A stretch of 64,000 nt of DNA from Brevibacterium luteolum. GTDB taxonomy: Bacteria > Actinomycetota > Actinomycetes > Actinomycetales > Brevibacteriaceae. The DNA lies in contig NZ_JABEMC010000007.1 of NCBI RefSeq assembly GCF_013004595.1, positions 1-64,000 on the forward strand, read 5' to 3'. Below the pieces are notes generated by a model. It was not told where the DNA came from. It searched no databases and worked only from the letters and a program-made list of their open reading frames with translations. The position numbers and the translations under genes are program-made. The number at the start of each line of letters is the position of its first letter. The stretch's first letter is position 1. Below are positions 26,210-45,015 of this stretch, one piece after another.

Positions 26210-26313
26210 GGGGGCTCCTTGAGACGGGAGGGCGCTCGGATGCGGGCGCGGCCAGTGAGGTGCGTTCAGCAGTGAACGTGATCCACGCCGGTGCTGTGTG
26301 CTACATTACAGTA

Positions 26314-27414: not shown

Positions 27415-29273
27415 CCACCGTCAACCTCGGGATGCCGACGATCCGCCACGGCCGCGGCAACCTCTTCGCCGACGAACCCTTCACCTCGGGCGCGGCCCGG
27501 GATCTGAAGAACGAGACCCTGCGCGGCAACCTCAATTTTGCGATGCGCAAGATCCGCGGCAAGCGCGCCGCCGTCGTCAGCGAGATGCCCGACTGGCAGC
27601 AGCTGCGCGCCGCCGGCTCGGCGATCAAGCAGAACGTGCTGGCCGACCTGCCCGAACTCCTCGAGCAGTTCGAGGCCTCCTTCACCGCTGCCGGCGGCCA
27701 CGTCCACTGGGCCCGTGACGCCGATGAGGCCAATGCGATCGCCCTGCGGCTGATCCAGGAGCAGGGAGTGGACGAGGTCAACAAGATCAAGTCGATGGCC
27801 ACCCAGGAGACCGGCCTCAACGAATACCTCGAAGCCCACGGCATCACCGCTGTTGAGACCGACCTGGCCGAGGAGATCGTGCAGCTCGGCGGCGACAAGC
27901 CCTCCCACATCGTCGTGCCGGCCATCCACCGCAACCGGGAAGAGGTCCGCGACATCTTCCTGCGCGAGATCGACGGCGTGCGTCCGGATCTGACCTCCGA
28001 GCCCACCGACCTGGCCGACGCATCGCGCGAGCGCCTGCGCGCGAAGTTTTTCGACAACCGCGTCGCCGTCTCCGGGGCGAACTTCGGGATCGCTGAGACC
28101 GGCACACTGACGATCGTCGAATCCGAAGGCAACGGCCGCATGTGCCTGACCCTGCCGGACACCCTCATCACCTTCATGGGGATCGAGAAGGTGCTGCCGC
28201 GCTTTGCCGACCTGGAGGTGTTCCTGCAGCTGCTGCCGCGCTCCTCAACCGGTGAGCGGATGAACCCCTACACCTCCCTGTGGACCGGCGTGACTCCCGG
28301 CGACGGGCCGCAGAACCTCCACGTCATCCTCATCGACAACGGCCGCACCGCCACACTGGCCGATGAGGTCGGCCGCCAGGCCCTGCACTGCATCCGCTGT
28401 TCAGCCTGCCTCAATGTCTGCCCCGTCTTCGAGCGCGCCGGCGGTCATGCCTACGGCTCGGTCTATCCGGGCCCGATCGGCGCGATCCTGTCCCCGCAGA
28501 TGACCGGCATCGAGGCCGCGGCGAACAACTCGCTGCCCTATGCTTCGTCCCTGTGCGGGGCCTGCTACGAAGTCTGCCCGGTCAAGATCAACATCCCCGA
28601 TGTGCTCGTCCACCTGCGCGGCGCCGACGTCGAGGCACGCCACAGCGCGCGCAGCACCGCGCCCGAGGCGGTGGACGTTTCGCCTGCCACCGACGCCTCT
28701 GCTTCCGGCGCCTCCCGGCGCTCCCGCCTGACAACGGCCGCCCGCACCGGGGCTGCCCGCATCGCCGGGGCGGTGGCCCGTCGGGTGCCCGATCAGATGG
28801 ATGCCCTCATGGCGGCTGCCAAGACCGCCTTCGCCAAGCCCGGGCTGCTGAGCATCGGTGAACGGGGACTGCCGCTGGGCAGGATCCTCGGCGGCAGGGA
28901 CGGGAAGATCTCCTTCCTGCCCGGTCTCATCGGCGGGTGGACCGAGCATCGGATCATCGACGCACCGCCTGTGCAGTCCTTCCGCCACTGGTGGAAGCGC
29001 AACCGCACGAGCGCCCCAGTGCGCCGCGCCCCCGAGCAGAGGGCCGATGTCGCCGCTCTCATCGCAGCCAACCGCGGCAAGGCCGCCGAACTCCATGCGC
29101 GCTTCGCCGCACCTGCCGATGACTACACCCGGCTCATGGCCGCCGAACGGGCAGGGATCCAGCACCACGACGCCACCGGTGCCGCCGTGGCCGACTATGC
29201 CCGCGGCACCGAGACCTCGGCGACCACCGCCTCGGGCACGGACGACGGACGGATGAAAGGCGAGAGAGCATGA
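27411..29273 (+). CDS. lutB: Lactate utilization Fe-S subunit
   Basis: KIKSM, ETDLAE, PSHIVVPAIH, ESEGNGRMC, CIRCSACLNVCP, SSLCGACYEVCPV. Confidence 0.93.
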   Translation: MTTVNLGMPTIRHGRGNLFADEPFTSGAARDLKNETLRGNLNFAMRKIRGKRAAVVSEMPDWQQLRAAGSAIKQNVLADLPELLEQFEASFTAAGGHVHWARDADEANAIALRLIQEQGVDEVNKIKSMATQETGLNEYLEAHGITAVETDLAEEIVQLGGDKPSHIVVPAIHRNREEVRDIFLREIDGVRPDLTSEPTDLADASRERLRAKFFDNRVAVSGANFGIAETGTLTIVESEGNGRMCLTLPDTLITFMGIEKVLPRFADLEVFLQLLPRSSTGERMNPYTSLWTGVTPGDGPQNLHVILIDNGRTATLADEVGRQALHCIRCSACLNVCPVFERAGGHAYGSVYPGPIGAILSPQMTGIEAAANNSLPYASSLCGACYEVCPVKINIPDVLVHLRGADVEARHSARSTAPEAVDVSPATDASASGASRRSRLTTAARTGAARIAGAVARRVPDQMDALMAAAKTAFAKPGLLSIGERGLPLGRILGGRDGKISFLPGLIGGWTEHRIIDAPPVQSFRHWWKRNRTSAPVRRAPEQRADVAALIAANRGKAAELHARFAAPADDYTRLMAAERAGIQHHDATGAAVADYARGTETSATTASGTDDGRMKGERA

Positions 29274-29911
29274 GTGAGCAGACCACCTCAGCGAAGGCCG
29301 AGATCCTCGCCCGCATCCGTTCGGCGCTGGCCGACAATCCGCAGCCGGCCGCACCCGTGCGCAACTACCGGCAGCGCAGCAGCGCCGATGCGCAGGCGGT
29401 GCGCGAGATGTTCATCGATCGGATCGTCGACTACAAAGCTCGTGCATTCATCGAAACCGCAGAGACGATCGCCGGGCGGATCGCCGAACTCCTCGGCGAA
29501 GATGCGCGGCACGTGGTGCCGGAGGGATTCCCGGTCGGCTGGCTGCCCAGTGACGGCTCTGCTGGTGAGAGGATCGTTGACACAGCAGACCAGCCGCTCA
29601 GCCACGCCGAACTCGACGCGGTCGACGCCGTCGTGACGTCTTCGACGGTCTCGTGCGCGGAGACCGGGACCGTGTTCCTCAACGCGGGGCCTGCCGAAGG
29701 GCGTCGGGCGATCAGTCTCATCCCCGATCACCACATCTGCGTGGTGCCGGCCGAATCGCTCGTCGAGCTCGTGCCCGAGGCGCTCGCCCGCATCGACCAC
29801 AGGCAGCCGGTGACGATGTTCTCCGGACCGTCGGCGACCTCGGACATCGAGCTGCAACGTGTCGAGGGGGTCCACGGTCCGCGGAAGGTCGACATCATCA
29901 TCCTCGACTGA
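29270..29911 (+). CDS. lutC: Lactate utilization protein C (LUD domain)
   Basis: AETGTV, GRRAISLIPDHH, SGPSATSDIEL, GVHGP. Confidence 0.92.
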   Translation: MSEQTTSAKAEILARIRSALADNPQPAAPVRNYRQRSSADAQAVREMFIDRIVDYKARAFIETAETIAGRIAELLGEDARHVVPEGFPVGWLPSDGSAGERIVDTADQPLSHAELDAVDAVVTSSTVSCAETGTVFLNAGPAEGRRAISLIPDHHICVVPAESLVELVPEALARIDHRQPVTMFSGPSATSDIELQRVEGVHGPRKVDIIILD

Positions 29912-30037
29912 GCTGCAGATCTCTCCGGCAGGCAAGCCGCGACCCGAGCTCTCGGACCGGGGCGGCGCGGACACCGGGGCGGCACAGACGATGAAGGCGC
30001 GGTTCGAGGCAGCGAAAACGCCGCATGAGGCCGCCGC

Positions 30038-30057
30038 CTGTCCGAGATTCCGGACAG
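30038..30057. promoter_or_regulatory. Candidate HutR (IclR) operator upstream of hutU
   Basis: CTGTCCG-AGATTC-CGGACAG palindrome. A related 14-mer, TCCGGCATTTCAGA, lies upstream of hutI (40773-40786). Confidence 0.55.
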
Positions 30058-30166
30058 ATCGTGCTTCGGCTCACTTTCGGCTGCTTCCACCTGCGCGCAG
30101 ACTGGAAGCAGAACCGTTCGCACCCCGCGCCTGACTGCAGGCGTCCCGAGAGCCGGAGGAAGACGC

Positions 30167-31933
30167 ATGACGACGTCACACGCATCCGAAACCACAGACA
30201 CCGCAGCTGCGAAGGAAGCAGCCGCGAAGCAGACGTTCACCCGCCACGACCCGGAACGCGTCGTGCGGGCTCCGCGCGGCACCGAGATCACGGCCAAGAC
30301 CTGGTCGACCGAAGCCGCCAAGCGGATGCTCATGAACAACCTCGATCCCGAGGTCGCCGAACGCCCCGAAGACCTCGTCGTCTACGGCGGCACCGGCCGT
30401 GCCGCCCGCTCATGGGAGGCCTTCGACGCGATCGTCAAGACTCTCGACGACCTCGAAGCCGATGAGACCCTCCTCGTCCAGTCCGGCAAGCCGGTCGGTG
30501 TGCTGCGCACCCACGAATGGGCCCCGCGGGTGCTCATCGCCAACTCCAACCTCGTCGGCGACTGGGCCAACTGGGAGCACTTCCGCCACCTCGAAGCTGA
30601 AGGCCTCATGATGTACGGCCAGATGACCGCCGGTTCCTGGATCTACATCGCCACCCAGGGCATCCTGCAGGGCACCTACGAGACCTTCGCCGCGGTCGCC
30701 CGCAAGCGCTTCAACGGAACCCTGGCCGGCACCCTGACCCTCACCGCCGGCTGCGGCGGCATGGGCGGTGCCCAGCCGCTGTCGGTGACCCTCAACGGCG
30801 GCGCCTGCCTCATCATCGACGTCGACAAGTCCCGCCTCGATCGCCGCCAGTCCAAGCGCTACCTCGACGAGGTCGAGACCGACCTCGAGGTCGCTCTCGA
30901 AAAGGTGCTCAAGGCCAAAGAGGAGAAGCGTGCGCTGTCCGTCGGCCTCGTCGGCAACGCCGCAGACATCGTCCCCGAGCTGCTCGCTCGCGACGTGCCC
31001 GTCGACATCGTCACCGACCAGACCTCGGCTCACGACCCGCTGTCCTACCTGCCGCTGGGTGTCAGCCTCGAGGACTGGCAGGCCGAAGCTGATGAGGATC
31101 CGGAGAAGTTCACGCTGCGGGCTGAGGAGTCGATGGCCAAGCACGTCGCCGCGATGGTCGGCTTCCAGGACAAGGGAGCCGAGGTCTTCGACTACGGCAA
31201 CTCGATCCGCGACGAGGCCCGCAAGGCCGGCTACGATCGCGCCTTCGAGTTCCCCGGCTTCGTCCCGGCCTACATCCGCCCGCTGTTCTGCGAGGGCATG
31301 GGGCCCTTCCGGTGGGTCGCGCTCTCCGGTGACCCGCAGGACATCAAGGTCACCGACCAGGCGCTCAAGGAGCTCTTCCCGGAGAACGAGTCGCTGCATC
31401 GCTGGCTCGACGCCGCCGATGAGTACGTCGAGTTCGAGGGCCTGCCCGCCCGCATCTGCTGGCTGGGCTACAAGGAGCGCCACCAGGCCGGTGTGCTCTT
31501 CAACAAGCTCGTCGCCGAGGGCAAGGTCTCCGCACCGATCGTCATCGGCCGCGACCACCTCGACTCCGGCTCCGTCGCCTCGCCCTACCGTGAGACTGAG
31601 GGCATGCTCGACGGCACCGACGCGGTCGCCGACTGGCCGCTGCTCAACGCCCTGGTCAACACCTCCTCGGGCGCGACGTGGGTGTCGCTGCATCACGGCG
31701 GCGGCGTGGGCATGGGCCGTTCGATCCACGCCGGTCAGGTCTCGGTCGCCGATGGAACCGAGCTGGCGGAGCAGAAGCTCACCCGCCTGCTCACCAACGA
31801 CCCGGGCATGGGCGTCATCCGCCATGTCGACGCCGGCTACGACCGCGCCGTCGAGGTCGCCAAGGAACGCCACATGCGCATCCCGATGAATCCTGAGCTC
31901 GACAAGCGCGACGAGGAATCCGCCGCGAACTGA
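30167..31933 (+). CDS. hutU: Urocanate hydratase
   Basis: [48 protein letters not shown]. Confidence 0.97.
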
Positions 31934-31983
31934 GCCCGCCGAGGCGCACACTGACGCCTCCGGAGGGCAGTCCAGAGAAATCT

Positions 31984-32031
31984 GCGGAGCCACTCATCTG
32001 CTGCAGACCCGCAGCAGATGGGTGGCTCTGC
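31984..32031. repeat. ~21-bp-arm inverted repeat downstream of hutU (terminator or REP-like)
   Basis: GCGGAGCCACTCATCTGCTGC-AGACCC-GCAGCAGATGGGTGGCTCTGC, with two G:U pairs. Confidence 0.7.
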
Positions 32032-32074
32032 GCACATCGTCAGGTAACCGCAGGCCCGCCACACCCGAGGATCC

Positions 32075-32139
32075 GGAAAGTTAGCAAAGTTATTCATGGT
32101 TTCAGGCGCGAAAACCATGAATAACTTTCCTAACTTTCC
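32075..32139. repeat. AT-rich 28-bp-arm inverted repeat
   Basis: GGAAAGTTAGCAAAGTTATTCATGGTTT-9 nt-AAACCATGAATAACTTTCCTAACTTTCC, with one mismatch. Confidence 0.9.
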
Positions 32140-32250
32140 CCCTCAAGCCCACGTTCTCTCCCCTCAAGCTCAAGCCCGCGGGCCCCACCTGCGGAAAGCC
32201 GACTCGCCGGCGCGGAGCGCACCTGCAGGTCGAGCGCGTACATTGGAACC

Positions 32251-33225
32251 ATGGCCTGGGAATTCTGGATCGAAGAGGCACGCCGCGGCCGCTGGCGCGA
32301 GGTCGACGAACCGCACGCCGCCAGTGGGCAGCTGCGGGTGCGCACCACCGCCTCTGCTATCTCCCGCGGCACCGAACGCCTCGTGTGGGAAGGCCGGGTC
32401 CCCGACTCAGTCGCGGGTCTCATGGCCGCCCCCGCTCAGCGCGGCACCTTCCCCTTCCCCGTCTCCTACGGGTATCTGGCCGTCGGCACCATCGACGAGG
32501 GCCCGGCCGACCAGCTCGGCCAGCGCGTCTTCGGGCTGCTGCCGCACCACACCCATCACATCGTCGGCCCGGCTGACGTGCATCCCGTGCCCGAGGCGGT
32601 GCCCACCTCGCGTGCGCTGCTCGCCGGAGCGGCCGAGACCGGGATCAACATCCTGTGGCAGGCTCCGCCCCGATTCGGCGACCGCGTGGCCATCATCGGC
32701 GCCGGCATGATCGGTGCGGCCACCGCGCTGTTGGCCGACCGGATGGGGCTCTCCCGCCTCGAAGTCATCGACACTGACGCCGCACGCCGCGAGATGCTCA
32801 CCGGCCTCGGCCTGTCCACCGCGACCCCAGATGAGGCCAGCGGCGACTGCGATATCGTCATCCACACCTCGGGAACGGAAGCCGGCCTGGCCACGGCACT
32901 GGCCCTCACCGGCGACGACGGCACCGTCGTCGAAGCCTCCTGGTACGGCACCGACGCCCCGCGCGTGCCGCTCGGCGCGGACTTCCACGCCCGCCGGCTT
33001 TCGATCATCGCCAGCCAGGTCGGGCAGGTCGCCGCCGGCCAGCGCGCCCGCCGCACCCGCGCCCAGCGGCTTGGCCAGGCACTTCACGCCCTGCATGACG
33101 AGCGCTTCGATGCGCTCATCACCGGTTCCACCGACTGGTCCGAGCTGCCGGTCGTCATGGATCGCGTGCTCACCGACCCCGCCAGTCTGTGCCACATCGT
33201 CGACTACCGCAGCCTGCCCTGCTGA
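32251..33225 (+). CDS. MDR-family (threonine dehydrogenase-like) oxidoreductase lacking canonical Zn ligands
   Basis: SAISRGTE and SYGY replace the C..D/GHE motifs; Rossmann IGAGMIG; EASWYG. Confidence 0.85.
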   Translation: MAWEFWIEEARRGRWREVDEPHAASGQLRVRTTASAISRGTERLVWEGRVPDSVAGLMAAPAQRGTFPFPVSYGYLAVGTIDEGPADQLGQRVFGLLPHHTHHIVGPADVHPVPEAVPTSRALLAGAAETGINILWQAPPRFGDRVAIIGAGMIGAATALLADRMGLSRLEVIDTDAARREMLTGLGLSTATPDEASGDCDIVIHTSGTEAGLATALALTGDDGTVVEASWYGTDAPRVPLGADFHARRLSIIASQVGQVAAGQRARRTRAQRLGQALHALHDERFDALITGSTDWSELPVVMDRVLTDPASLCHIVDYRSLPC

Positions 33226-33235
33226 GAGGAGAGCC

Positions 33236-33655
33236 ATGTTCCGCCTGAGCATCAACGACCACATCATGATCGCCCACAGCCTGCCCGACCCGTTCTTCGG
33301 CCCGGCGCAGCACATGCACGGTGCCACGCTCGCCGTCGAGGCCCACTTCGAGACCGCCGAACTCGACTCCCACGGCGTCGTGCTCGACATCGGCCGGGCC
33401 GGTGAGATCCTCTCCGCGGCCCTCGACCCGCTGCGGTATGCCAACCTCGACGAGCACCCCGACTTCGCCGGGAAGATCTCGACGACCGAGGTCATCGCCG
33501 CCCACATCGGCAACCGTCTGCGCGAAGCGCTCGCCGACCGGCCCGACATCAGCATCGCCGTGACCCTCGATGAGAACCCCAACGCGCGGGTCACCTACAC
33601 CGTCCCGCCGGCGCCTACCCTGCACCCGGCTGACCCGGGGCCCCGGCAGGTATGA
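33236..33655 (+). CDS. 6-pyruvoyl-tetrahydropterin synthase family (COG0720) protein, non-QueD type
   Basis: HIMIAHSL..PFFGPAQHMHGAT, LRYANLD, STTE. The QueD CxxxHGH motif is absent. GAGGAGAG RBS. Confidence 0.88.
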   Translation: MFRLSINDHIMIAHSLPDPFFGPAQHMHGATLAVEAHFETAELDSHGVVLDIGRAGEILSAALDPLRYANLDEHPDFAGKISTTEVIAAHIGNRLREALADRPDISIAVTLDENPNARVTYTVPPAPTLHPADPGPRQV

Positions 33656-35556
33656 GCTCCCGGCCGGTCCACCTGCTCGAACCGGCCCTCGGCCGAGCCT
33701 CCGGTGGGGCCCGCTACAACTGCGCCGTCACCGATGCCGCCGCCCGGCTGCGCCTGCACTCCGTGCCCGGCGGCTGGCCCGACCCGTCTGCCGCCGATGA
33801 GGCTCGCGTGCACGACCTGCTCGCCGAGCTCGACGGCCCGGTCGTCCTTGACGGGCTGCTGGGATGTGCGCTGCGCACCCCGCCGGTGTACACTGGCCCG
33901 CTGCTGCAGCTCGTCCACCTGCCCCGTGGCCGAGGCGGTGGCGAGGCTCTCGCTCGTGAGCGCGCCTGCCTGCAGGTCGCTGATGGCATCATCGTCACCA
34001 GCCAGCACGCCGTCGAGGACATCGCCGGTCTCTACGGGCTGCGCGCCGCTGTCGCCCGGCCGGGGACCGAGCTTCGTCCGCTCACCGTGCCCGAGGCAGC
34101 GGGCACCCGCCTGCTGTGCCTCGCCTCTGTCGAGGAGCGGAAGAACCAGCTGCTGCTGGCCGAAACACTCACCACCGTGCAGGCAGCCATGCCGGATGCC
34201 GGGATCAGCTGCGTGTTCGCCGGCCCGATCACCGAACCTGACTATGCCGAGCAGCTGCGGCAGGCCCTGACCCGCCTGCCGGCCGGCAGCTGGAAGATCA
34301 CCGGCGAACTCGACGAACACGGCGTCGACGCCGCCCTCGCGGCCGCCGATCTGCTCCTGCTTCCCTCGGTCCACGAGACCTTCGGGATGGTCATCACCGA
34401 GGCCGCTGCCGCCGGCATCCCCGCGTTCGTCACCGCAGGCACCGGCGCGCAGGAGGCCCTGCAGGCGGGCCGGTCCCTGCCGCCGGAACCGGGAGCCTGG
34501 GCTGAGGCACTCATGGCATGGCTCGGCGATGAGCATGACCGCACCCAGCTGCGGGAGCAGGCGCAGCGCACCCGCAAGGATCTGCCCGGGTGGGACGAGA
34601 CCGCGGCGGCGCTGCTTGCTGCCGTCGATGCGGTTGCTCGTACAGCGGATGCGTCTGCGGCTGGCCCGTTCTCTCCCGAACACGGGGACTGGCTCGACAT
34701 GCGCATCGCGTATGACAACACCGCGCGCACTGCCTCCCTGCCGCTCGTCGACGCCGCGCTCGAGGCGGTGGCAGGCCGCCGGGGGACCGCACCTGCCGCT
34801 CCTGCCATGCCGGCTGCTCCTGCCGTGCCGGCTGCTGAAGACCGACGGCTGCGGATCTGCGACATCGGCGCCGGCACCGGCAACTCCGCACTCTGGTTCG
34901 ACTCCGCGTTCGGCGAGCGCGGAATCACCGACCGGACATGGCTGCTCATCGACGACGACCCAGACGCACTCACCCAGGCTGCTGCCCGCATCGGGGCTAC
35001 TCCCGACCGCCGCGCTGAGACCCGGCGCGCACCGATCGCCGAGCTGCCACGCATCCTCGACGTCAGCCAGCCCGTCGACCTCATCACCGGCAGCGCCGTG
35101 CTCGACGTGCTGCGCCCCGCTGATGCCGCAGCCCTCGTCGACACGCTGGCAGCGACCGGGGCGCCGGGTCTGTTCCTGCTCACCATCACCGGCGACTGGC
35201 ACCTCAACCCCGTGCACCCGGCAGACCGACAGATCGCCGGTGCCTTCGCCGCTCATCAGCAGCGCGAGGGCCGGCTCGGTGCCGCTGCCGCTTCCCACCT
35301 GCAGGACGCTGCCGAAGCCGCCGGCATGCGCGTGCAGTCCACCGCCAGCCCCTGGCAGCTCAGCGCCCGTGAGGATCACGTGTTCCTCACCCGGTTCCTC
35401 ACCGACCGCGTCACCGCTGCCAGCGAACAGGATCCCGGCTCCGCGGCCCTCTTCTCCGCATGGCTGGGCGACCGGCTGGCTGACGAGACACTCACCGTCA
35501 CCGTCGACCACCGCGATCTGCTCATCCTGCCCACCACTCCAGGGGAGGGGCGATGA
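33652..35556 (+). CDS. GT4 glycosyltransferase fused to a class I SAM-dependent methyltransferase
   Basis: N-terminal SGGARYN, RKNQ, PSVHETFGMVITEA. C-terminal WLDMRIAYD, ICDIGAGTGN, DLITGSAVLDVL, DHRDLL. Confidence 0.85.
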   Translation: MSSRPVHLLEPALGRASGGARYNCAVTDAAARLRLHSVPGGWPDPSAADEARVHDLLAELDGPVVLDGLLGCALRTPPVYTGPLLQLVHLPRGRGGGEALARERACLQVADGIIVTSQHAVEDIAGLYGLRAAVARPGTELRPLTVPEAAGTRLLCLASVEERKNQLLLAETLTTVQAAMPDAGISCVFAGPITEPDYAEQLRQALTRLPAGSWKITGELDEHGVDAALAAADLLLLPSVHETFGMVITEAAAAGIPAFVTAGTGAQEALQAGRSLPPEPGAWAEALMAWLGDEHDRTQLREQAQRTRKDLPGWDETAAALLAAVDAVARTADASAAGPFSPEHGDWLDMRIAYDNTARTASLPLVDAALEAVAGRRGTAPAAPAMPAAPAVPAAEDRRLRICDIGAGTGNSALWFDSAFGERGITDRTWLLIDDDPDALTQAAARIGATPDRRAETRRAPIAELPRILDVSQPVDLITGSAVLDVLRPADAAALVDTLAATGAPGLFLLTITGDWHLNPVHPADRQIAGAFAAHQQREGRLGAAAASHLQDAAEAAGMRVQSTASPWQLSAREDHVFLTRFLTDRVTAASEQDPGSAALFSAWLGDRLADETLTVTVDHRDLLILPTTPGEGR

Positions 35557-36491
35557 CCCAGGTGCCCGGCACCTCGGCGGCGGCCCGCACACGCACCGGC
35601 TCGCGCGCCTTGCCAGCAGGCGAGGCGCCGAGACGCACGCGAACCCAACGGGGTGGGCGGTGGATGCGTGTGCTCGCAGTGATCGCCAGTGTCGTGCTGC
35701 TCGTCATCACCGCCCGGCTCATCGGCGCGCAGGCGCTCACCGCCGGATTCACCGCGCTCGGGCCAGTGAGCGTCCTCGCCGCCGCTGTGCTCGGGTTCGC
35801 AGCCACCGGTGCGCAGGCTCTGCGCTGGCACCTGCTCGCCGCCGCCGGCGGGATCCGGCTCGGGCTCGGCCGGGCGCTGGCCGACTGCTACGCCTCCAGC
35901 TTCGCGAACATGGTGCTGCCCGGCGGGCTGGCCGGCGATGCCGTGCGCGCAGCGGTCTACCGCGACCGCGGGCGCCGTCGCTGGCTCTCACCGCTCCTGG
36001 CGGTCGGGGCGGAGCGGCTGAGCGCGACAACGCTGCTCTTCGCAGCCGCCGCCGTCATCCTCTCGCTGCACACCTCGCCGGCGCTCATCGCCGCAGCCGC
36101 AGCTGCGACTGTGTCCTTCGGATGTGCGATCGCCGCCGTCGTGTGCATGCGCGGAATGGGCACCCGCCGGCAGCTGGTCGTGTGGGCGACCTCTGCGCTC
36201 AGCGTGGCAGCACTCGTGGCGCTGTTCCTCGTCGCGATGCGCGCCCTGGGGGGCCGGATCGAACCGATCGTGGCGATCATCGGGCTGGCGGCGATGAGCC
36301 TGCCGGTCGGGGTCGGCGGGTGGGGTCCTCGTGAACTGTCCGTCGGACTGCTCGCCGGACCCCTGGCCCTGCACGCCGAATCCGCCGTCAGCGCCGCAAC
36401 CGCCTATGGGCTGCTCGCAACTGCATCGACCCTGCCGGGTCTGGCCGTGCTGCTGTGGCATTGGCTGCGCCAGCCGCGCCAGCAGGGCTGA
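35553..36491 (+). CDS. LPG-synthase TM / UPF0104 flippase-like membrane protein
   Basis: ALRW, FANMVLPGGLAGDAVRA, ERL, SLPVGVGGWGPRE. Confidence 0.85.
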   Translation: MTQVPGTSAAARTRTGSRALPAGEAPRRTRTQRGGRWMRVLAVIASVVLLVITARLIGAQALTAGFTALGPVSVLAAAVLGFAATGAQALRWHLLAAAGGIRLGLGRALADCYASSFANMVLPGGLAGDAVRAAVYRDRGRRRWLSPLLAVGAERLSATTLLFAAAAVILSLHTSPALIAAAAAATVSFGCAIAAVVCMRGMGTRRQLVVWATSALSVAALVALFLVAMRALGGRIEPIVAIIGLAAMSLPVGVGGWGPRELSVGLLAGPLALHAESAVSAATAYGLLATASTLPGLAVLLWHWLRQPRQQG

Positions 36492-36494
36492 GCT

Positions 36495-37850
36495 TCAGCT
36501 CTCCAGCAGTCCCGAGGTGCGCTGCTGGGCAGCCGCGCTGAGGACGAACTCCGTGCACACATCGGCGTCGAACAGGTGCCGCCGGAACGGCACCCGCAGC
36601 GCCTCGGCCATCACCGGCGAACCGGAGAACCGCAGCCCCGGCACCCCATCGCCGATGAGCACCGGCGCCAGGGTCAGGAACAGCCGGTCGAGGACACCTG
36701 CAGCCAGGAAGTCCGACACGGTCCGGCCGCCGCCCTCGATGAGCACTGCGCCCGGCACCTGCTCACGCACGACCGCCAGCACCTGCTCTGGCGACACCGG
36801 CGCACCGCCGGTCTGCGGCAGCCGGACGACGGCGACATGACCGGCCAGGTCAGCCGGCACCTCGGCGGCGGGACCGACCAGCCACAGCGTCCTGGCCGCC
36901 CCATCGGTGAGCACCTGCCGGTCGGCCGGGATCCGGGCGTGCGGGTCGAGCAGCACCCGCACCGGGTTCTCGCCATCAACCGCCCGCACGGTTAGCTGCG
37001 GGTCATCGGCGACGACAGTCTGGGCGCCGACGACGACTGCGGCGACAGCGGCGCGCAACCGGTGCAGATGCGCCCGGTCGGCCTCCCCGGAGACGAACGC
37101 CGCATCCCCGCTGCGGGCGGCGATGAATCCGTCAGCGCTCTGCGCCAGCTGGGCGACGACCTCGGCGCCGGCGGTGATCGCTGCGTAGTCCGGGCCCGAG
37201 GTGCCGGTCGCCTGGGCAGCCGCGACCGGCACCTCGGGCACGGCGCGCGGCCGGTCGTGGTGCATCCGGCGGCGCTTCGTGTCGAGGTAGCCTGCGTTCT
37301 CCGGCCGGTCGGCGACCGGGAGCATCCGCCGCTCGATCACCTCGATGCCGAGCGCTTCGAGCGCGGCGGCCTTCGTCGGATTGCTCGACAGCAGCCGCAC
37401 CCGGGTGATGCCGAGGGCCTCGAGCATCTGGGCGGCGGCGGTGTAGTCGCGAGCGTCATCAGGCAGGCCGAGGCGCCGGTTGGCATCGACGGTGTCGAGC
37501 CCGGCATCCTGCAGCTCATAGGCCTCCAGCTTCGGGCCGAGCCCGATGCCGCGGCCCTCATGTCCGCGCAGGTAGAGCAGCACACCGCAGCCGGCATCGG
37601 CGATCGCGGCCAGTGCCGCCTGCAGCTGGTCGCCGCAGTCGCAGCGATGCGAGCCCAGCGCATCGCCGGTGAGGCACTCGCTGTGCATCCGCACGAGCGG
37701 GGCGGTCGCAGCAGACGGGTCACCGGCGACCATCGCGACATGCGTGGTGCCGGCGGCGTCGAAGGCGTAAGTGGTGAAGACGCCGTGATCGGTGGGCAGC
37801 ATCGTGCGTGCCCGCTGGTGAAGCGCGGTGCCGGATTCGGAGATGGCCAT
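36495..37850 (-). CDS. GTP cyclohydrolase II fused to a RibD C-terminal reductase domain (no deaminase domain)
   Basis: VRMHSECLTGDALGSHRCDCG, HEGRGIGL, DARDY, LLSSNP; then AQSADGFIA, GAQTVVADDPQLTVR, IEGGG, APVLIG. Confidence 0.9.
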   Translation of the reverse strand: MAISESGTALHQRARTMLPTDHGVFTTYAFDAAGTTHVAMVAGDPSAATAPLVRMHSECLTGDALGSHRCDCGDQLQAALAAIADAGCGVLLYLRGHEGRGIGLGPKLEAYELQDAGLDTVDANRRLGLPDDARDYTAAAQMLEALGITRVRLLSSNPTKAAALEALGIEVIERRMLPVADRPENAGYLDTKRRRMHHDRPRAVPEVPVAAAQATGTSGPDYAAITAGAEVVAQLAQSADGFIAARSGDAAFVSGEADRAHLHRLRAAVAAVVVGAQTVVADDPQLTVRAVDGENPVRVLLDPHARIPADRQVLTDGAARTLWLVGPAAEVPADLAGHVAVVRLPQTGGAPVSPEQVLAVVREQVPGAVLIEGGGRTVSDFLAAGVLDRLFLTLAPVLIGDGVPGLRFSGSPVMAEALRVPFRRHLFDADVCTEFVLSAAAQQRTSGLLES

Positions 37851-37860
37851 GGATGACAGT

Positions 37861-38562
37861 CTAGGCCTGGTTGACCTCGGCGGCACGGCCGCGTTCGAGG
37901 ATGCGGATGTCGAGGGCGAAGGAGACGAGGAGGCTTGCCACCGCTGCGATCGTGCACACCCACCCGAAAGCCGGCACCGCCAAGCCCGGCGGGGAGCCAG
38001 CGGCCAGCAGCAGCGGGCCCTGGAAGGCGGCCACCGTTTTGCGCCGCCACGACGGCGGCAGCTCGGCTCTCCAGGCCGGCCGGATCGCGGCTCCAGCCCG
38101 GAACGCGAAGTGCGCCAGCCCGCTGATGAGGCACCAGGCGCCGTAGAGCGGCACGAGCGCTGCGGAGAGCACGAGCACGACGGTCGCGTCGACCTGCTCA
38201 TCGAAGCGGGCGCCGGCGGCAGTCGTGACGGTCGCCCGGGCGATGAGCCCGTCGACGAGGTCGAGGGCGAGCATCGGGATCGCGATCGCGACCGCCAGCC
38301 ACCCGAAGCCCGGGTCCGGGTGCACGGCGATCGCGGCGATGACGACAAGCAGCATCCCCAACCGGAAGCTGGTGACGCAGTCGGCCCAGTGCCAGCCGCT
38401 GGCCGTTCCCGAGGCGGTGGCCGGCTCACGTGGCGCGAGCAACGGCCACGCGCCGAGGATCCCGGTGCCGGCAGCCAGGATGACCGGCACCGTTGTGGCG
38501 GCCAGCCACCCGGCCGTGCCGAGTGCGACCGTGAGGATGAGGATGACGGTGAGCCGACGCAT
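37861..38562 (-). CDS. CDP-alcohol phosphatidyltransferase family protein
   Basis: Signature DLVDGLIAR...GARFDEQVD. TGATG overlap with the upstream gene. Confidence 0.88.
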   Translation of the reverse strand: MRRLTVILILTVALGTAGWLAATTVPVILAAGTGILGAWPLLAPREPATASGTASGWHWADCVTSFRLGMLLVVIAAIAVHPDPGFGWLAVAIAIPMLALDLVDGLIARATVTTAAGARFDEQVDATVVLVLSAALVPLYGAWCLISGLAHFAFRAGAAIRPAWRAELPPSWRRKTVAAFQGPLLLAAGSPPGLAVPAFGWVCTIAAVASLLVSFALDIRILERGRAAEVNQA

Positions 38563-39041
38563 CAGCACCCGCTTGACGGTGTGCCCGGGGACAAGTGGGC
38601 AGCCAGGCCGCGCTCGCCTGCGGCCATGACATGGCGGTGCGCCCAGCCGGCGAGCAGGCTGCAGGCGTTGACTGCGATTCGACGGGAGCACACCGCCCAC
38701 TCGAATGTCATCTGGGTGCCCGACCCATCGGGTGCGGCACGCCATGTCCCGGTGCCGGTCAGGTCACCGCTGACCGCCAGCTTCGCGGTATGCGGGGCGG
38801 TGGCAGACGTGAGTCTGAGCAGGAGATCGAGATGGAAGCCCAGCGGGCTGCCGACGACCACCCGGGCGCGGGTGTTCGGGGCAACCGTGCCGGTCGCAGC
38901 GTACAGCTGTGCCTCCCGTACGCCAGGCCACCAGGCTGGCCAGCCGTCAACGGCACACAGCGCCTGCCAGCACCGGTGCGTCTCAGCTGGGATCTGCCAC
39001 TGTGAGACGAACCGGTACCGGCGCGGCGCTGTGAGGGTCAT
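38562..39041 (-). CDS. SRPBCC/polyketide-cyclase-like (START-fold) protein
   Basis: YRFVSQW, CWQAL..VDGWPAWWPGV, SPLGF, GDLTGTGTW, HRHVMAAGERGL. Confidence 0.8.
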   Translation of the reverse strand: MTLTAPRRYRFVSQWQIPAETHRCWQALCAVDGWPAWWPGVREAQLYAATGTVAPNTRARVVVGSPLGFHLDLLLRLTSATAPHTAKLAVSGDLTGTGTWRAAPDGSGTQMTFEWAVCSRRIAVNACSLLAGWAHRHVMAAGERGLAAHLSPGTPSSGC

Positions 39042-39311
39042 CGTCCCAGCCTATGCCCAGGCGCGGGGCTGCCGGCACCGGAGTCGTCATTGTCCTGACC
39101 CTCGGGTAGGGACTCCCACGAAGTCGGCAGCAATGTGGTGGGGGAGCAGGTGAACGCCTTCTCCTGGGCCGTGAAGCCGCGGATGCGGAACTGCTGCGGG
39201 TTGCCCTTGAACGTCTGGAGCTTGTGCGCGAAGGCAGCGTCGTGCTCTGGGTTTCGCCGATGATGCGGCCCAGGGGGCGGACCCGGATCGGCGTGTGCGC
39301 TGCGGATGGCT

Positions 39312-39345
39312 CGAGGGGCCCAGCTCATCTGAGCTGGGCCCCTCG
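39312..39345 (-). terminator. Perfect 16-bp hairpin downstream of the TM2 gene
   Basis: CGAGGGGCCCAGCTCA-TC-TGAGCTGGGCCCCTCG. Confidence 0.75.
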
Positions 39346-39369
39346 GTATTCGGGTGTGCGAACAGTCTC

Positions 39370-40620
39370 TCAGCTTGCTGAGGCTGTCCAGCTGCCGTCG
39401 GCTTGCACGATGAGAATCGACGGGCCTGACCTCACGGGAACCGAGCCGTCGTAGCTGCCGATCTCGTTGATGAGCAGGTCGGGTCCGAAGTCGGAGCCCG
39501 AATTCTCGTACACCACGAAGTTGCTCTCCCCGTCATGAGTGAAGCTGATGGTTGCCGCGCCCTCGGTGTACTGCATCACCGTGTCCCCCGAGCCTGATTC
39601 GGAGAATGCGGCTGCCGTGGACACCGGTGACAGCGTGATCTCAAAAGCGCCGGTGGCAGTGACCTGCAGCTTCGATGTGGCGTCCCAGCCGTCTGCGCTG
39701 ACGAAAGTCGTCCCCTCATAGGCGCCGATCGCATTGACCGGCAGCGCTCCGCTGTTCCCATTCGACTCGTCGAGGCCTTGGATGATGAAATTGCCATCGC
39801 CGCTGTACTTCGCGGTGATGAGCACGCCGGAGGCGCCGGCGGGCATATCGATGACCGTGTCACCGCTGCCGGTTTCGGTCACCGGGTCGAACGTGCCGAA
39901 GGCTCCGTCGGCCCAGGAGGCGAAGTCGGCGCCCGAGCTGTCGGCGTCATCGGTTTCAGCCGCCGATTCCTCCTCGGCGTCGGCCTCCTCGACTGCAGGC
40001 GGTTCTTCTTCCAGCGCTGAGTCGGCAGGATCTTCTGGTGCTGACTGCGACGCCGGCTCGTCAGCCGGTCGCACGGTCGAAGCGCTCTGCGCACCGAAAA
40101 GGCCGGCGACTCCCATGATGATGCCGAGGACGAATCCGAGTGCGACGAGGATGGCGGTGACGATCCACGCGGTCTTCTTGTGCTGCTGGTAACCGGCCAG
40201 CGGGCGGCCCTGCTTGTCGCGAGTGGCGCCGACGAGGACCATGATGAGGTCGACGAGCGCCCAGATGCCCAGTCCGCCGGCGGTCAGCAGCTTGGCGATC
40301 GCCGTGCCGATTTTGCCGAGGTAGAAGCGATCGGCGCCGAAGGAGCCGAGGAAGTATGCCAGCAACCAGGTGACGAGGAAGCTCTTATCTGATTCGCCTG
40401 CAGGGTGCTCCGGTTGCGCACCGTAGCCCGGAGTCTGCGCGCCCGGGTGTGGGGAGGGTGTTCCGTATGCCGGTTGCGGCTGCGAACCATACTGAGGTGC
40501 GGGGCTGTAACCGGGCTGGCTGCTGTGTGCATCGGCTGGAGGCTGATAGGCGGACGACGGGTCGTGAGGCGGCTGCTGTGGGAAGCGGTCGGTCTCGCCG
40601 TCACCGGGCTGATACGACAT
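39370..40620 (-). CDS. TM2-domain membrane protein with Pro/Gln-rich N-terminus and acidic extracellular beta domain
   Basis: [43 protein letters not shown] (TM2). Duplicated GSGDTV...NF...VN/INEIG.Y.G repeats. Confidence 0.85.
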
Positions 40621-40925
40621 CTGATGCTCTCTTCTCTCGACTGCGCATTGCACAGTTCCTACTCAGTCAGCTTTCAGTTTATATCCAGATTCGACTGCTG
40701 TCCCTGGCGGCCGGCGGTAAGCGATTCACAGGTGCTGGGTGCCGCGTCGGCACTCGCTGCGAGGTTCTCGATTCCGGCATTTCAGACGATAATGGCATGA
40801 GACCGGTGCCTTCACGCCGCTCAGGATGGCACCCTGAAGACGACTGCCGTGTGCACGCCATCCACGCGGCTGGACGCCGAATGGCTGGGGGTGATGACGC
40901 CGCCGGCCAGTGCAGAAGGGAAACC

Positions 40926-42143
40926 ATGGGCACCATTCTCGTGACCGACATTTCGGAGCTCGTGACCAACGACCCGTCAGCCGCCGCTGCCGGCCCGGCC
41001 CCCGCCTCGGCGCCGGACGGCTATGAACGTCTTGGCATCATCACCGACGCTGCGATGCTCATCGACGGCGACATCGTCCGCTGGGTCGGCCCAGCTGACG
41101 AGGCCCCCGCCGGCGCCACCACGATCTCCGCGGCCGGCGGCGCGGTCATCCCCGGTTTCGTCGACAGCCACAACCACCTCGTCTTCGCCGGCGACCGCTC
41201 CGCCGAGTTCGCCGCTCGGATGGCCGGTCAGAAGTACTCCGCCGGCGGCATCGCCACCACCGTGGCCGCCACCCGCGCAGCCAGCGACGCCGAACTCGAA
41301 GACAACCTCACGACGCTCATGCGCCAGGCCGAGCACTCCGGCACGACGACGTTCGAGATCAAGACCGGCTACGGCCTCACGCTGGCGGACGAGATCCGCC
41401 AGCTGGAGATCATCAACCGCCACACCGATGAATCCACCCTCATCGCCGCCCACGTCGTCCCGCCGGAGCACAAAGACAATCCCGAGCGCTACGTCGACCT
41501 CGTCATCGACGAGATCATCCCGGCCGCCGCCGGCAAGGCCAAGTGGATCGACGTGTTCTGCGAAGAGGGCGCCTTCACCGAAGACCAGACCGCCCGCATC
41601 CTCAATGCCGGCGTCGCCCACGGCATGCGTCCGCGCCTGCACGCCAACCAGCTCACCGCCGGCGGCGCCCTGCAGCTGGCCGCAGCGCACGGCTGCGCGT
41701 CTGCCGACCATGCGACCTTCGCCTCGGACGCGGACCTCGCAGCCCTCGCCGAGGCCGGCACAGTGGCTACCCTGCTGCCCGGTGTCGAATTCTCCACCCG
41801 CCAGCCCTACCCCGATGCCCGCCGCTTCCACGCCGCCGGCGTCACCGTCGCGATCGCCAGTGACTGCAACCCTGGCTCGTGCTTCACCAGCTCGATCCCG
41901 TTCTGCATCGCCCTGGCCGTGCGCGATATGCACTTCACTGTCGAACAGGCGATCTGGTCGGCCACCGCCGGCGGTGCCGCGGCACTCGAACGCAGCGACA
42001 TCGGCCGGCTCAGCCCCGGCGCCCGCGCCGACTTCTCCATCCTCACCGCACCCAGCTACCGGCACCTGGCTTATCGGCCCGGCGTCAACCTCATCCGTGA
42101 GGTCCACCGCGCCGGCCGTCCGATCGCCGCCAACCCATCGTGA
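40926..42143 (+). CDS. hutI: Imidazolonepropionase
   Basis: [46 protein letters not shown]. Confidence 0.95.
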
Positions 42144-42154
42144 AAGGCACCCAC

Positions 42155-43753
42155 ATGACCGTTGACACCCCCACCGTCGCCCTCGATCCTGATGCGCTGA
42201 CCTTCGCCGACGTTCTCGCCGTCGCCCGCCACGACGCGCAGGTCACCGTGCCCGAGGCGGTGGCTGAGAATGTGGCCGCCAACCGCTCCGCAGTCGAGGC
42301 CCTGGCCGAGGCGCCCCGCCCGGTCTACGGCGTCTCCACCGGGTTCGGCGCGCTCGCCCAGCGGCACATCGCCCATGATCTGCGCGCCCAGCTGCAGAAG
42401 TCCCTCATCCGCTCGCATGCCGCCGGCGTCGGCACCCCGGTCGAGCGCGAAGTCGTCCGGGCGCTCATGCTGCTGCGCGCCCGCACGCTGGCCACCGGCC
42501 GCACAGGTGTGCGCCTGGAGACGCTCAACACCTATGTCGCGATCCTCAACGCCGGCATCACCCCGGTCGTCTACGAATACGGCTCACTCGGCTGCTCCGG
42601 CGACCTCGCACCGCTGTCGGCCTGCGCACTCGTCGCGATGGGCGAAGGCGAGGTCCACGCACCCGACGGCACCACCGCCTCGGCCGCCGACGCCCTCGCT
42701 GCAGCCGGCATCGAACCGCTCGAACTGGCCGAGAAGGAGGGACTGGCGCTCGTCAACGGCACCGACGGCATGCTCGGCATGCTCATCCTCGCCCTTCACG
42801 ACATCGAGAACCTGCTCACCACCGCAGATCTCACTGCGGCGATGAGCGTGGAGGCGCAGCTGGGCACCGACCGGGTGTTCATGCCCGATCTGCACGAGCC
42901 GCTGCGCCCGCACCCGGGCCAGGCCGCTTCGGCAGCGAACATGCTCAAAGCCCTCGACGGATCGCCGATCGTCGCCAGCCACCGCGAGTCCACCCACCTC
43001 GTCCAGGACGCCTACTCGCTGCGCTGCACCCCGCAGGTCACCGGTGCCGCCCGCGACGCCGCCGCCTACGCCGCCCAGGTCGCCGCCCGCGAACTCCGGG
43101 CAGCGATCGACAACCCGGTCGTGCTGCCTGACGGCTCGGTGTCCTCCAACGGAAACTTCCACGGCGCACCGCTCGCTCACGCGCTCGACTTCCTCGCCAT
43201 CGCCGTCGCCGATGCCGCCAACATCGCCGAACGCCGCACCGACCGGATGATGGATGTGGCCCGCAACGAGGGCCTGCCGCCGTTCCTCGCCGATGACGCC
43301 GGCGTCGACTCCGGGCTCATGATCGCCCACTACACGCAGGCCGCCCTCGTCTCCGACCTCAAGCGTCTGGCAACCCCTGCCAGCGTCGACTCGATCCCCT
43401 CGTCTGCCATGCAGGAGGACCACGTGTCGATGGGCTGGTCGGCTGCGCGGAAGCTGCGCACCGCGGTGACGAACTTCGCCTCCGTGCTCGGCATCGAACT
43501 CTACGCAGCCGCCCGGGCCACCGACCTGCGCGAGCACGACCCGGCCGCCGTCACCGGCGCGGTCATCAGCCTGCTGCGCCAGACCGTGCCCGGCCCCGGC
43601 CCCGACCGGTTCCTCTCACCGGAGCTGGCCGACGCGATCGAGCTCGTGTCCTCCGGGAAGGTGACGGCCGCCGCCGAGGCGGTGGCTGGCCTCACCCATA
43701 CGCTCACCGACACGGATGGCACCGTGCTGAATGGACGGAGTGAACAGTCATGA
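42155..43753 (+). CDS. hutH: Histidine ammonia-lyase
   Basis: VYGVSTGFG, GSLGCSGDLAPL (MIO-forming CSG), QDAYSLRC, GNFHG, QEDHVSMG. Confidence 0.96.
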   Translation: MTVDTPTVALDPDALTFADVLAVARHDAQVTVPEAVAENVAANRSAVEALAEAPRPVYGVSTGFGALAQRHIAHDLRAQLQKSLIRSHAAGVGTPVEREVVRALMLLRARTLATGRTGVRLETLNTYVAILNAGITPVVYEYGSLGCSGDLAPLSACALVAMGEGEVHAPDGTTASAADALAAAGIEPLELAEKEGLALVNGTDGMLGMLILALHDIENLLTTADLTAAMSVEAQLGTDRVFMPDLHEPLRPHPGQAASAANMLKALDGSPIVASHRESTHLVQDAYSLRCTPQVTGAARDAAAYAAQVAARELRAAIDNPVVLPDGSVSSNGNFHGAPLAHALDFLAIAVADAANIAERRTDRMMDVARNEGLPPFLADDAGVDSGLMIAHYTQAALVSDLKRLATPASVDSIPSSAMQEDHVSMGWSAARKLRTAVTNFASVLGIELYAAARATDLREHDPAAVTGAVISLLRQTVPGPGPDRFLSPELADAIELVSSGKVTAAAEAVAGLTHTLTDTDGTVLNGRSEQS

Positions 43754-45015
43754 CCGATGTCACCAGCCTCATGGGCCAGATCGAAACGGTCGGCACCGAC
43801 CCGCGCGGGCCCGGCTACCTGCGGCCGGGCTACTCGCCGATCGAACGTGAGCTGCGCGACTGGTTCGTTGCCGAAGCCGAACGCCGCGGCCTTGACGTCG
43901 AGATCGACGCCAACGGCATCGTGTGGGCCTGGGCGACCGCTCCGGGTGAGAACGCCGTCGTCACCGGTTCGCATCTGGACTCGGTGCCCGGAGGCGGCCA
44001 GTTCGACGGCCCCCTCGGTGTCGCCTCGGCGCTGGCCGCCTACGACGAACTCGAAGCCCGCGGCACCTTCGATCGGCCCACTCGGCCGTTCGCGCTCGCC
44101 GTGTTCCCCGAAGAAGAGGGCTCCCGGTTCGGGCTCGCCTGCCTGGGCTCGCGGCTGCTGACCGGTGCGGTCGCCGCCGCGGACGCCCTGGCGCTGACCG
44201 ACCAGAACGGCGACACACTCGCCGATGTCGTCACCCGCTACGACCTCGACCCCGCCCGGATGGGTGCTGACCAGGACCGGGTCAACCAGATCGGGTCGTT
44301 CATCGAACTCCACGTCGAACAGGGCGTCGGGCTCATCAACACCGACCAGCCGGTGGCGATCGGCTCTTCGATCGTCGGCCACGGCCGCTGGCACTTCCGC
44401 TTCACCGGCCAGGGCAACCACGCCGGCACCACTCCGATGGCCCACCGCGCCGACCCGGTTGCTGCCGCCAGCCGCCTCATCGGCGACATCCCGGCGTTGG
44501 CCGACGGCTTCGATGAGGCCGTCGCGACCGTCGGACGCACTTCGATCCACCCTGGCGGCACGAACGTCATCGCCTCGGCGATGGACTTCTGGCTCGACAT
44601 CCGCCACGATTCCGATGACGTCGTCGCAGAGGTCCTCGAGGCGATCACCACTCGCGGCAAGGAGCGCGCCGCAGAAGCCGCCGGTACCGGTGCGCGGGAG
44701 AACGGCGTCGAGGTCGGCCTCGATGTCAGCCGAGAATCCTACTCACCGACGACGCACTTCCATCGCGAACTGAACGACCGGCTGCGCGCCGTCCTGCCCG
44801 AGGCGCCCCTGCTGGCGACCGGCGCCGGGCACGACGCCGGGATCCTCGCCGCACATGTGCCCTCGGCGATGCTGTTCGTGCGCAACCCCACCGGCGTCTC
44901 CCACGCCCCGGAGGAAGCCTGTGAAGACGACGATGCCCGTGCCGGCGCGAAGGCGCTGGCCGATGTGCTCGCCGCCGAACTCACCCACGGCCTCGACAAC
45001 GGAACGGCATCATGA
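43750..45015 (+). CDS. M20/allantoate amidohydrolase-family hydrolase; likely N-formylglutamate deformylase role in the hut operon
   Basis: GSHLDSVP.GG.FDG, EEEGSRF, ELHVEQG, NHAGTTPM, GAGHDA, SHAPEE. Located between hutH and hutF. Confidence 0.85.
   Translation: MTDVTSLMGQIETVGTDPRGPGYLRPGYSPIERELRDWFVAEAERRGLDVEIDANGIVWAWATAPGENAVVTGSHLDSVPGGGQFDGPLGVASALAAYDELEARGTFDRPTRPFALAVFPEEEGSRFGLACLGSRLLTGAVAAADALALTDQNGDTLADVVTRYDLDPARMGADQDRVNQIGSFIELHVEQGVGLINTDQPVAIGSSIVGHGRWHFRFTGQGNHAGTTPMAHRADPVAAASRLIGDIPALADGFDEAVATVGRTSIHPGGTNVIASAMDFWLDIRHDSDDVVAEVLEAITTRGKERAAEAAGTGARENGVEVGLDVSRESYSPTTHFHRELNDRLRAVLPEAPLLATGAGHDAGILAAHVPSAMLFVRNPTGVSHAPEEACEDDDARAGAKALADVLAAELTHGLDNGTAS

Follow-up and report, generated by a model that had tools for sequence, protein, structure and literature searches.

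The closest described relatives of the gene cluster considered here are found in Streptomyces. The SCO6650-SCO6655 region of Streptomyces coelicolor encodes a COG0720 (PTPS-family) protein with the sequence FGPAQ, the published signature of the PTPS-IV subgroup (PMC5445326), and a Streptomyces plasmid carries a similar set of CDP-alcohol transferase, MDR, PTPS, GT4, methyltransferase, flippase-like and GTP cyclohydrolase II (GCH II) genes; the part of PMC5445326 consulted also names PF00925 within the PTPS-IV neighbourhood. Here we analyse 64,000 nucleotides of Brevibacterium luteolum DNA (NCBI RefSeq assembly GCF_013004595.1, contig NZ_JABEMC010000007.1, positions 1 to 64,000, forward strand; hereafter the window), which hold a seven-gene locus at 32251..39041. 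Judged by sequence, the locus is of the known PTPS-IV/SCO6650 type, for which no product report was found, with six of the seven genes as members. These genes may use GTP to build a neopterin-type head group, glycosylated and probably methylated, that is phosphatidyl-linked and flipped outward, a reading that we advance tentatively and at somewhat less than an even chance. The Streptomyces copies have Met in their GCH II, a creatininase, and their reductase elsewhere, whereas here GCH II keeps Tyr105 with no creatininase; moreover, two of the genes here are fusions, joining RibD_C to GCH II and GT4 to the methyltransferase, and no GCH II other than that of the cluster was found in the genome.

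Other systems offer partial parallels. The archaeal and fungal riboflavin route, in which GCH II or III is followed by ArfC/Rib7, resembles the entry to the putative pathway in having a reductase that lacks Lys152 and keeps the phosphate-binding arginines, and in its structural representative 6P8C. Unlike that route, the cluster has no deaminase, lumazine synthase or riboflavin synthase, and the genome carries a separate rib operon with a Lys-type RibD. In the pathways to pterin glycosides (cyanopterin, biopterin glucoside), a GTP-derived ring is likewise processed by a PTPS-family protein, an oxidoreductase and a glycosyltransferase. These pathways start from GTP cyclohydrolase I and use a Cys-type PTPS and a short-chain reductase, and cyanopterin carries a methyl group. 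In contrast to the present cluster they have no lipid module, while a pterin is here a predicted product. Queuosine/preQ0 synthesis (QueD, PTPS-I) has the T-fold COG0720 protein in common with it.

The locus consists of two convergent units with seven intact open reading frames, and the stop codons of the units lie 3 bases apart. Open reading frames, Pfam and NCBIfam domains and AlphaFold folds confirmed the gene set, arrangement and span given in the original prediction:

32251..33225, + strand: MDR-fold dehydrogenase, BchC-like (PF00107 at E 5e-5, below cut-off; AlphaFold model)
33236..33655, + strand: PTPS-IV protein, COG0720, T-fold (PF01242; FGPAQ-x-x-HGA)
33652..35556, + strand: fusion of a GT4 glycosyltransferase and a class I S-adenosylmethionine (SAM)-dependent methyltransferase (PF00534 and PF13649, the latter below cut-off)
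35553..36491, + strand: LPG_synthase_TM / UPF0104 flippase-like membrane protein (PF03706, E 1e-16)
36495..37850, - strand: fusion of GTP cyclohydrolase II and RibD_C reductase (PF00925 and PF01872)
37861..38562, - strand: CDP-alcohol phosphatidyltransferase (PF01066)
38562..39041, - strand: SRPBCC protein, Polyketide_cyc2 (PF10604)

Start and stop codons overlap at the PTPS/GT4, GT4/flippase and SRPBCC/CDP junctions, and the CDP transferase gene lies 10 bases upstream of the GCH II fusion. The GC content at third codon positions is 0.80-0.91 in six cluster genes (PTPS not included). The nearest named record is Brevibacterium otitidis, whose PTPS protein is 99% identical and whose regional DNA is about 93% identical.

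The PTPS protein carries FGPAQ at residues 21-25 and its closest solved structure is SCO6650/3D7J (E 1.8e-24, the next match standing at E 2e-5), which upholds the PTPS-IV identity proposed earlier. H14, H28, D51, N70, D72 and E85 are invariant in 141 of 141 sequences. Membership of QueD failed, with FGPAQHMHGA instead of CxxxHGH and a TIGR03367 score of 29.7 bits against a cut-off of 89.25. The genome, rated 100% complete, gave 0 matches to PF06508 (queC), queE and queF not being searched; PTPS-IV proteins elsewhere are nonetheless often auto-annotated as QueD. An ESM Atlas search returned PTPS clusters only, and a scan for PTPS-IV fusions (26 of 150 representatives scanned) gave one PTPS-GT4 N-domain protein (P0146) and five tandem-PTPS proteins. 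The latter (P0012, P0039, P0089, P0097 and P0115; 373-855 residues) have two or three tandem PTPS-IV-like domains and are possibly single-chain T-fold barrels. Literature searches, with supplementary material outside their scope, gave no report of a product for the PTPS-IV cluster, in line with its earlier description as uncharacterised; the excerpts of PMC9478397 and PMC5397151 hold nothing on the cluster, and a 2026 review, in the part consulted, says of the third RibA of S. coelicolor only that its function is new and has no relation to flavin synthesis (PMC13151069).

The gene association was assessed in a pooled set of 132 loci of more than 10 kb with a PTPS-IV match, gene presence being called by tblastn at E 1e-4. 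The pool combines most of 80 loci biased to close relatives, 4 of 21 plasmid matches, locus L087, 35 of 48 matches from a 301-genome Actinomycetes sample and 20 of 20 further matches from a 301-genome Pseudomonadota sample; plasmid locus L105, with the PTPS gene but not the others, was excluded by hand. The cluster is present in 49 of the 301 Actinomycetes and 21 of the 301 Pseudomonadota genomes, and co-occurrence spans Actinomycetota, Pseudomonadota and Bacteroidota, as the neighbourhood check suggested with the original prediction was meant to establish. Since MDR adjoins PTPS-IV in all 132 loci, the association is not due to chance. GT4 is present in 125 loci, the methyltransferase in 88, the CDP transferase in 82, the flippase-like gene in 68, RibD_C in 67 and GCH II in 60; accessory genes are a membrane sulfatase-fold protein (30), creatininase (18) and an MdoH-like protein (14). 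MDR, PTPS-IV and GT4 form the invariant core and minimal unit.

The entry to the putative pathway is the part best anchored in known enzymology. In the GCH II domain, C59, C70, C72, Y111 and R134 align with the zinc cysteines, Tyr105 and Arg128 of the E. coli enzyme (2BZ0), and the domain passes TIGR00505 (215.5 bits; cut-off 205.85). A Tyr-to-Met GCH II, in work ascribed to Spoonamore in 2006, reportedly stops at a formylated product, Tyr105 being tied to formate release, and a creatininase-like enzyme removes formate from that product. Among 61 cluster GCH II proteins, Tyr105 stands without a creatininase in 43 and with one in 2, Met, Leu or His replaces it in the presence of a creatininase in 16, and none lacks both. 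Because loss of the tyrosine is paired with the creatininase, both layouts would converge on 2,5-diamino-6-ribosylamino-4-pyrimidinone 5'-phosphate (DARP), provided that the tyrosine acts as reported.

In the RibD_C domain, Q234 occupies the Lys152 site while R266, T278, D282, R289 and E372 are kept. None of the aligned cluster RibD_C domains has Lys152 (Gln, His or Ser instead); Arg184, Thr196, Asp200 and Glu299 are present in all, and Arg207 in all but L115 (Lys). The housekeeping RibD of the same genome has Lys at this site, and the fusion reductase has no deaminase domain, unlike bacterial bifunctional RibD. The best structure match is the archaeal diamino reductase 6P8C; the TIGR01508 score is 96 bits, below the cut-off of 186, despite the ArfC/Rib7-type residues. 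Lys152 accounts for selection of the deaminated substrate, its place being taken by Thr or Asn in fungi and archaea (PMC3631187). Given the glutamine at this site, the entry substrate is likely un-deaminated DARP, reduced to its ribityl form (DARIPP) with the 2-amino group intact, which would fit the invariant T-fold Glu85.

In 14 of 14 genomes from two actinomycete families whose cluster has no RibD_C, a Ser-type reductase (51-61% identity) is encoded elsewhere, and in the five loci fetched it stands beside or is fused to a deaminase. In these loci (L186:4351-5475 and L187-L190) the order of RibD is reversed, reductase first and deaminase second, the two being fused in two loci and adjacent in three; in L186 and L187 the reversed RibD adjoins a second GCH II. 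The Ser-type reductase occurs in 77 of 101 genomes of one family, and the reversed RibD suggests that many actinomycetes follow the archaeal/fungal order of riboflavin steps. As a separate observation, many housekeeping RibD proteins of Micrococcaceae (L089-L100, L192-L207) have His, and one Arg, at the site where Lys152 has been called conserved in eubacteria.

The second oxidoreductase is an MDR protein without catalytic zinc. It failed the test for a zinc-dependent MDR alcohol dehydrogenase, having no catalytic Cys or GHE motif, although the fold is MDR (its model has pLDDT 96 and comes closest, at a TM of about 0.8, to butanediol, iditol and sorbitol dehydrogenases). The zinc ligands are replaced by S38-R-G-T-E42 and G74-Y75 in 135-136 of 137 homologues, and the acidic residue 174, of NAD(H) type, is Asp or Glu in all 137. 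In the downstream fusion, residues 1-335 form the GT4 domain with its E242/E250 motif, and the methyltransferase has DIGAGTG at 404. The methyltransferase model (pLDDT 92) has 3mgg as its best fold match (Z 19.7, rmsd 3.3, 240 aligned residues, 11% identity); an attempt to read its substrate from the structure was abandoned, as only generic class I matches at 8-22% identity were obtained.

The membrane genes recall relays in which a phospholipid donates its head group (PgsA followed by LtaS/LtaP, MdoB/OpgB or EptA, and the flippase domain of MprF). The parallel lies in the CDP-alcohol transferase and the LPG_synthase_TM protein here, and in the sulfatase-fold protein of the 30 loci mentioned above; unlike those relays, the match to LtaP is weak (E 0.001) and no sulfatase-fold gene was found in this genome. 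The CDP transferase has about 6 hydrophobic segments and an intact DxxDGxxAR-x7-GxxxDxxxD motif from residue 101, also present in homologues; the flippase-like protein has at least 6 hydrophobic segments, and no cytidylyltransferase was found among recurrent neighbours. A CDP transferase gene accompanies the flippase gene at 67 of its 68 loci and the sulfatase-fold gene at 29 of its 30. A profile of 28 sulfatase-fold proteins gave lipoteichoic acid primase as its best, weak structure match (E 0.0011), with the ES, nucleophile S, SH and GDH motifs aligning to LtaP; a single such protein used as query gave no PDB or NCBIfam match. Queries for the sulfatase-fold, MdoH-like, FkbM and creatininase proteins had no match in the Brevibacterium genome. 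Two variants stand out elsewhere. In L047:2312-4804, a CDP-alcohol transferase is fused to an LtaS-like sulfatase-fold domain (831 residues). In L054, L063, L068, L070 and L146-L155, which have no CDP or flippase gene, an MdoH-like glucan glucosyltransferase gene diverges from MDR, and such clusters often also carry an FkbM methyltransferase and a cytochrome b561.

Taken in the order suggested by these parts, the predicted pathway would begin with the opening of GTP to DARP by GCH II, a step that agrees with the function of its family and the catalytic residues present. RibD_C would then reduce un-deaminated DARP to DARIPP with NADPH, and the zinc-less NAD-type MDR protein would oxidise the C2' hydroxyl of the ribityl chain. 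NADPH-dependent reduction at C1' and NAD+-dependent oxidation at C2' would together amount to a net Amadori rearrangement, and condensation of the resulting ketone with the 5-amino group could yield a 7,8-dihydroneopterin-type phosphate; molecules of this kind are handled by COG0720 proteins. PTPS-IV could bind the 2-amino-4-oxo ring through the T-fold glutamate and either help to close the ring or shorten the side chain. GT4 would attach a sugar to the product, and completion and display of the phospholipid would fall to the methyltransferase, the CDP-diacylglycerol transferase and the flippase. In many other bacteria an LtaS-like enzyme may pass the phospho-head group to a surface polymer; since no LtaS-like gene was found in this genome, the lipid itself is the likely end product here. 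Pterin glycosides do exist in bacteria (PMC13259868, as excerpted). A fuller version, possible but doubtful, combines a pterin made in a widespread bacterial pathway independently of GTP cyclohydrolase I by this redox Amadori route, its display as a phosphatidyl pterin glycoside (a new class of phospholipid head group derived from a nucleobase), transfer to surface polymers by LtaS- or MdoH-like enzymes in other taxa, and capture of the first riboflavin step in the present Brevibacterium clade.

That capture is suggested by the distribution of riboflavin genes. The original prediction had set riboflavin and queuosine synthesis aside for want of ribE/ribH or que genes. This holds for the cluster itself and, as regards queC, for the genome, but contig C21 carries a ribD-ribE-ribB-ribH operon with no cyclohydrolase domain, and no GCH II besides the fusion was found in the genome; the exclusion of riboflavin on these grounds fails. 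Of 69 Brevibacteriaceae genomes, 23 have PTPS-IV; 19 of these carry a GCH II next to ribB in addition to that of the cluster, adjacency being read from coordinates, and the other four (G000, the present genome, with G011, G026 and G053) have the cluster GCH II only. Among the 46 genomes with no PTPS-IV, a single GCH II adjoins ribB in 45, and both genes are missing from the remaining one. In G011 and G026, ribB is intact and stand-alone, followed by ribH, and the sole GCH II is in the cluster. A quick tree of 90 GCH II domains, made with no clade test, grouped the window copy with those of other clusters (support 89-92) and kept it separate from 21 ribBA domains. The pattern argues that the cluster GCH II has displaced the GCH II domain of ribBA in the four-genome clade, which in turn argues that the cluster enzyme makes DARP; in genomes with an intact rib operon, the cluster would supply the DARP used for riboflavin.

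In the present genome, ribB (DHBP synthase) has a one-base deletion and frameshift (L082:4406; G000:C21, about 16405). The deletion also occurs in run X1, possibly a source of the same DNA and not independent, and is absent from the near-identical runs X3 and X4 and from G011 and G026. Because of the frameshift, the strain probably became a riboflavin auxotroph only recently, its cluster being intact. G053, rated 100% complete in 70 contigs, has kept the cluster although neither ribE nor ribB gave a match. The original prediction would have been refuted by a fusion that was the genome's only ribA and simply supported riboflavin synthesis; it is indeed the sole GCH II, but a role restricted to supply is contradicted by the 19 of 23 genomes that keep a separate ribBA, by G053 and by the frameshifted ribB. 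Two side observations concern these operons. In L082:2028-4769, ribD, ribE and ribB occupy one stop-free frame of 913 codons (879 in G011 and G026), either a natural RibD-RibE-RibB fusion or separately started genes with no in-frame stops. G027, a relative assembled in a single contig of 2.4 Mb, has no GCH II, ribB or ribE match, and represents a complete loss of riboflavin synthesis.

Several points weigh against a phosphatidyl-linked neopterin glycoside. We infer everything after the first step, including the position of the MDR oxidation, the order of the steps and the ring. With folE present in the genome, it needs explaining why another route to neopterin should exist, and PTPS-IV has lost the catalytic Cys and one zinc His of PTPS/QueD, which makes classical PTPS chemistry doubtful. 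The lipid module is optional, the CDP transferase being absent from 50 of the 132 loci, and soluble phosphodiesters are also among the products of CDP-alcohol transferases. MDR, PTPS and GT4 stand alone in 27 loci; most of the genomes tested with such three-gene clusters have no dedicated reductase, and 20 of 31 tested with one query have no close CDP transferase homologue. A lipid carrier, as first proposed, is thus plausible for this version of the cluster but does not belong to a universal core. The PTPS-IV homologue of L105 (plasmid NZ_CP109229.1) has FGSAQ and cupin and MEKHLA neighbours, with no MDR or GT4. Because the loci are related, the co-occurrence counts overstate independence, and they describe rather than test. 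A cluster-specific role for the Ser-type reductase was rejected, for it occurs in 27 of 27 genomes with PTPS-IV but also in 50 of 74 without, and is at best permissive. Similarly, His at the Lys152 site was considered as an adaptation to three-gene clusters, being found in 11 of 12 RibD proteins, but 6 of 9 parsed cluster-less Micrococcaceae controls have it too (10 fetched, L202 left out); in this family His is a lineage trait, and the Lys rule is not absolute. On its own account, the L105 homologue possibly represents recruitment to another pathway.

The same entry and lipid display could serve a non-pterin head group, either a monocyclic glycosylated and methylated ribitylamino-pyrimidine or a lumazine- or diazepine-like ring, with PTPS-IV binding or isomerising. 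The entry and lipid evidence applies equally to this alternative, and both the lost PTPS residues and the neopterin already supplied through folE speak for it. However, free 5-amino-6-ribitylamino-pyrimidines are generally known to be oxygen-labile and would be poor surface groups, and a carbonyl-driven closure of the ring would suit the invariant pairing of MDR with a T-fold protein; we consider a non-pterin head group unlikely. It is quite unlikely that the core makes a soluble glycoside, a protectant or signal, for which the CDP, flippase, LtaS-like and MdoH-like proteins are interchangeable export or attachment modules, so that no stable lipid is required here. The core-only loci and the 20 genomes with no close CDP homologue would be explained in this way, as would the alternation of CDP and MdoH-like genes (81 loci with CDP only, 13 with MdoH only, 1 with both and 37 with neither). 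Yet in this locus the CDP gene lies within 10 bases of the GCH II fusion and has an intact motif, the flippase is coupled to the GT4-methyltransferase, and all 15 other loci of the same gene order that are long enough keep CDP and flippase.

In a further alternative, which we find improbable, the pyrimidine is a leaving scaffold, and PTPS-IV or MDR frees 1-amino-1-deoxyribitol (aminopentanetetrol, APT) for a methylated, glycosylated phosphatidyl head group like the APT lipids of Methanomicrobiales. DARIPP does contain the C5-amino-polyol, and the CDP transferase, methyltransferase and flippase would fit; on the other side, no C-N cleaving enzyme is evident, disposal of the ring would be costly, and haloarchaea are carriers of PTPS-IV. 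APT lipids with N- and O-methyl groups exist, but in the part of PMC6423904 consulted APT appears only in a Methanomicrobiales strain and in 0 of 9 Halobacteria (for the lipid, see also PMC2686161). Finally, the cluster could serve cofactor synthesis only, riboflavin or F420, with the envelope genes hitch-hiking. The sole GCH II would suit riboflavin, many carriers are generally known as F420-making actinomycetes, and an unpublished result cited in PMC5041015, as excerpted, involves PTPS-IV in F420 synthesis. F420 synthesis is nevertheless unlikely here, since the only CofD-family (PF01933) match in the genome is YvcK, with TIGR01826 above cut-off (cofC, cofE and cofG/H were not searched); the separate ribBA of most cluster-bearing relatives, the cluster kept in G053 and kept intact here despite a frameshifted ribB, and the presence of GT4 in 125 of 132 loci make cofactor synthesis as the sole function highly improbable.

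The remaining gene of the locus is probably a local passenger outside the pathway, to judge by its distribution. The SRPBCC gene is coupled to the CDP gene here and is otherwise present in the nearest relatives G011, G026 and G053, but was rejected as a conserved cluster member because it is rare at other loci (2/70, 1/35 and 0/20). The approximately 290 bases upstream of it (39041-39330) resemble a decayed coding fragment of lower GC content, with a short open reading frame at 39038-39328 (-) and no Rfam match; in the window as a whole, the Rfam scan found a tRNA at 1425-1497 only. No sigma-70-like promoter or terminator was found in 31900-39500. By translation-based labels, the cluster and a TM2-like membrane gene (39370-40653, -) lie between hutU and hutI-hutH-hydrolase genes (window 30167-31933 and 40449-45015), which looks like an insertion into a histidine-utilisation region; among the ten loci listed, only the nearest relatives match these flanks. 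Lactate permease and lutABC-like lactate utilisation genes, labelled in the same way, occupy 24545-29911. Contigs of RNA-labelled runs matched the bins of 30000-41000 at 90% likeness or more (28 of 30 for X15, 25 for X17 and 17 for X18), contigs being unable to show transcription, and raw run X21 covered no bin in this range.

If the phosphatidyl-linked pterin glycoside is real, a membrane head group derived from GTP would be added to those known, along with a second pathway leading to pterins. The Brevibacterium copy is easier to test than others because of its two fusions, its compact six-gene set, its reductase on board and the absence of a downstream transferase. The lipid should accumulate in this organism for the latter reason, and entry through DARIPP and the use of NADPH followed by NAD+ are specific predictions. 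The loss of the ribBA cyclohydrolase domain would represent a natural complementation that ties an orphan pathway to the supply of vitamin B2, and may explain why the cluster has been retained in this clade.

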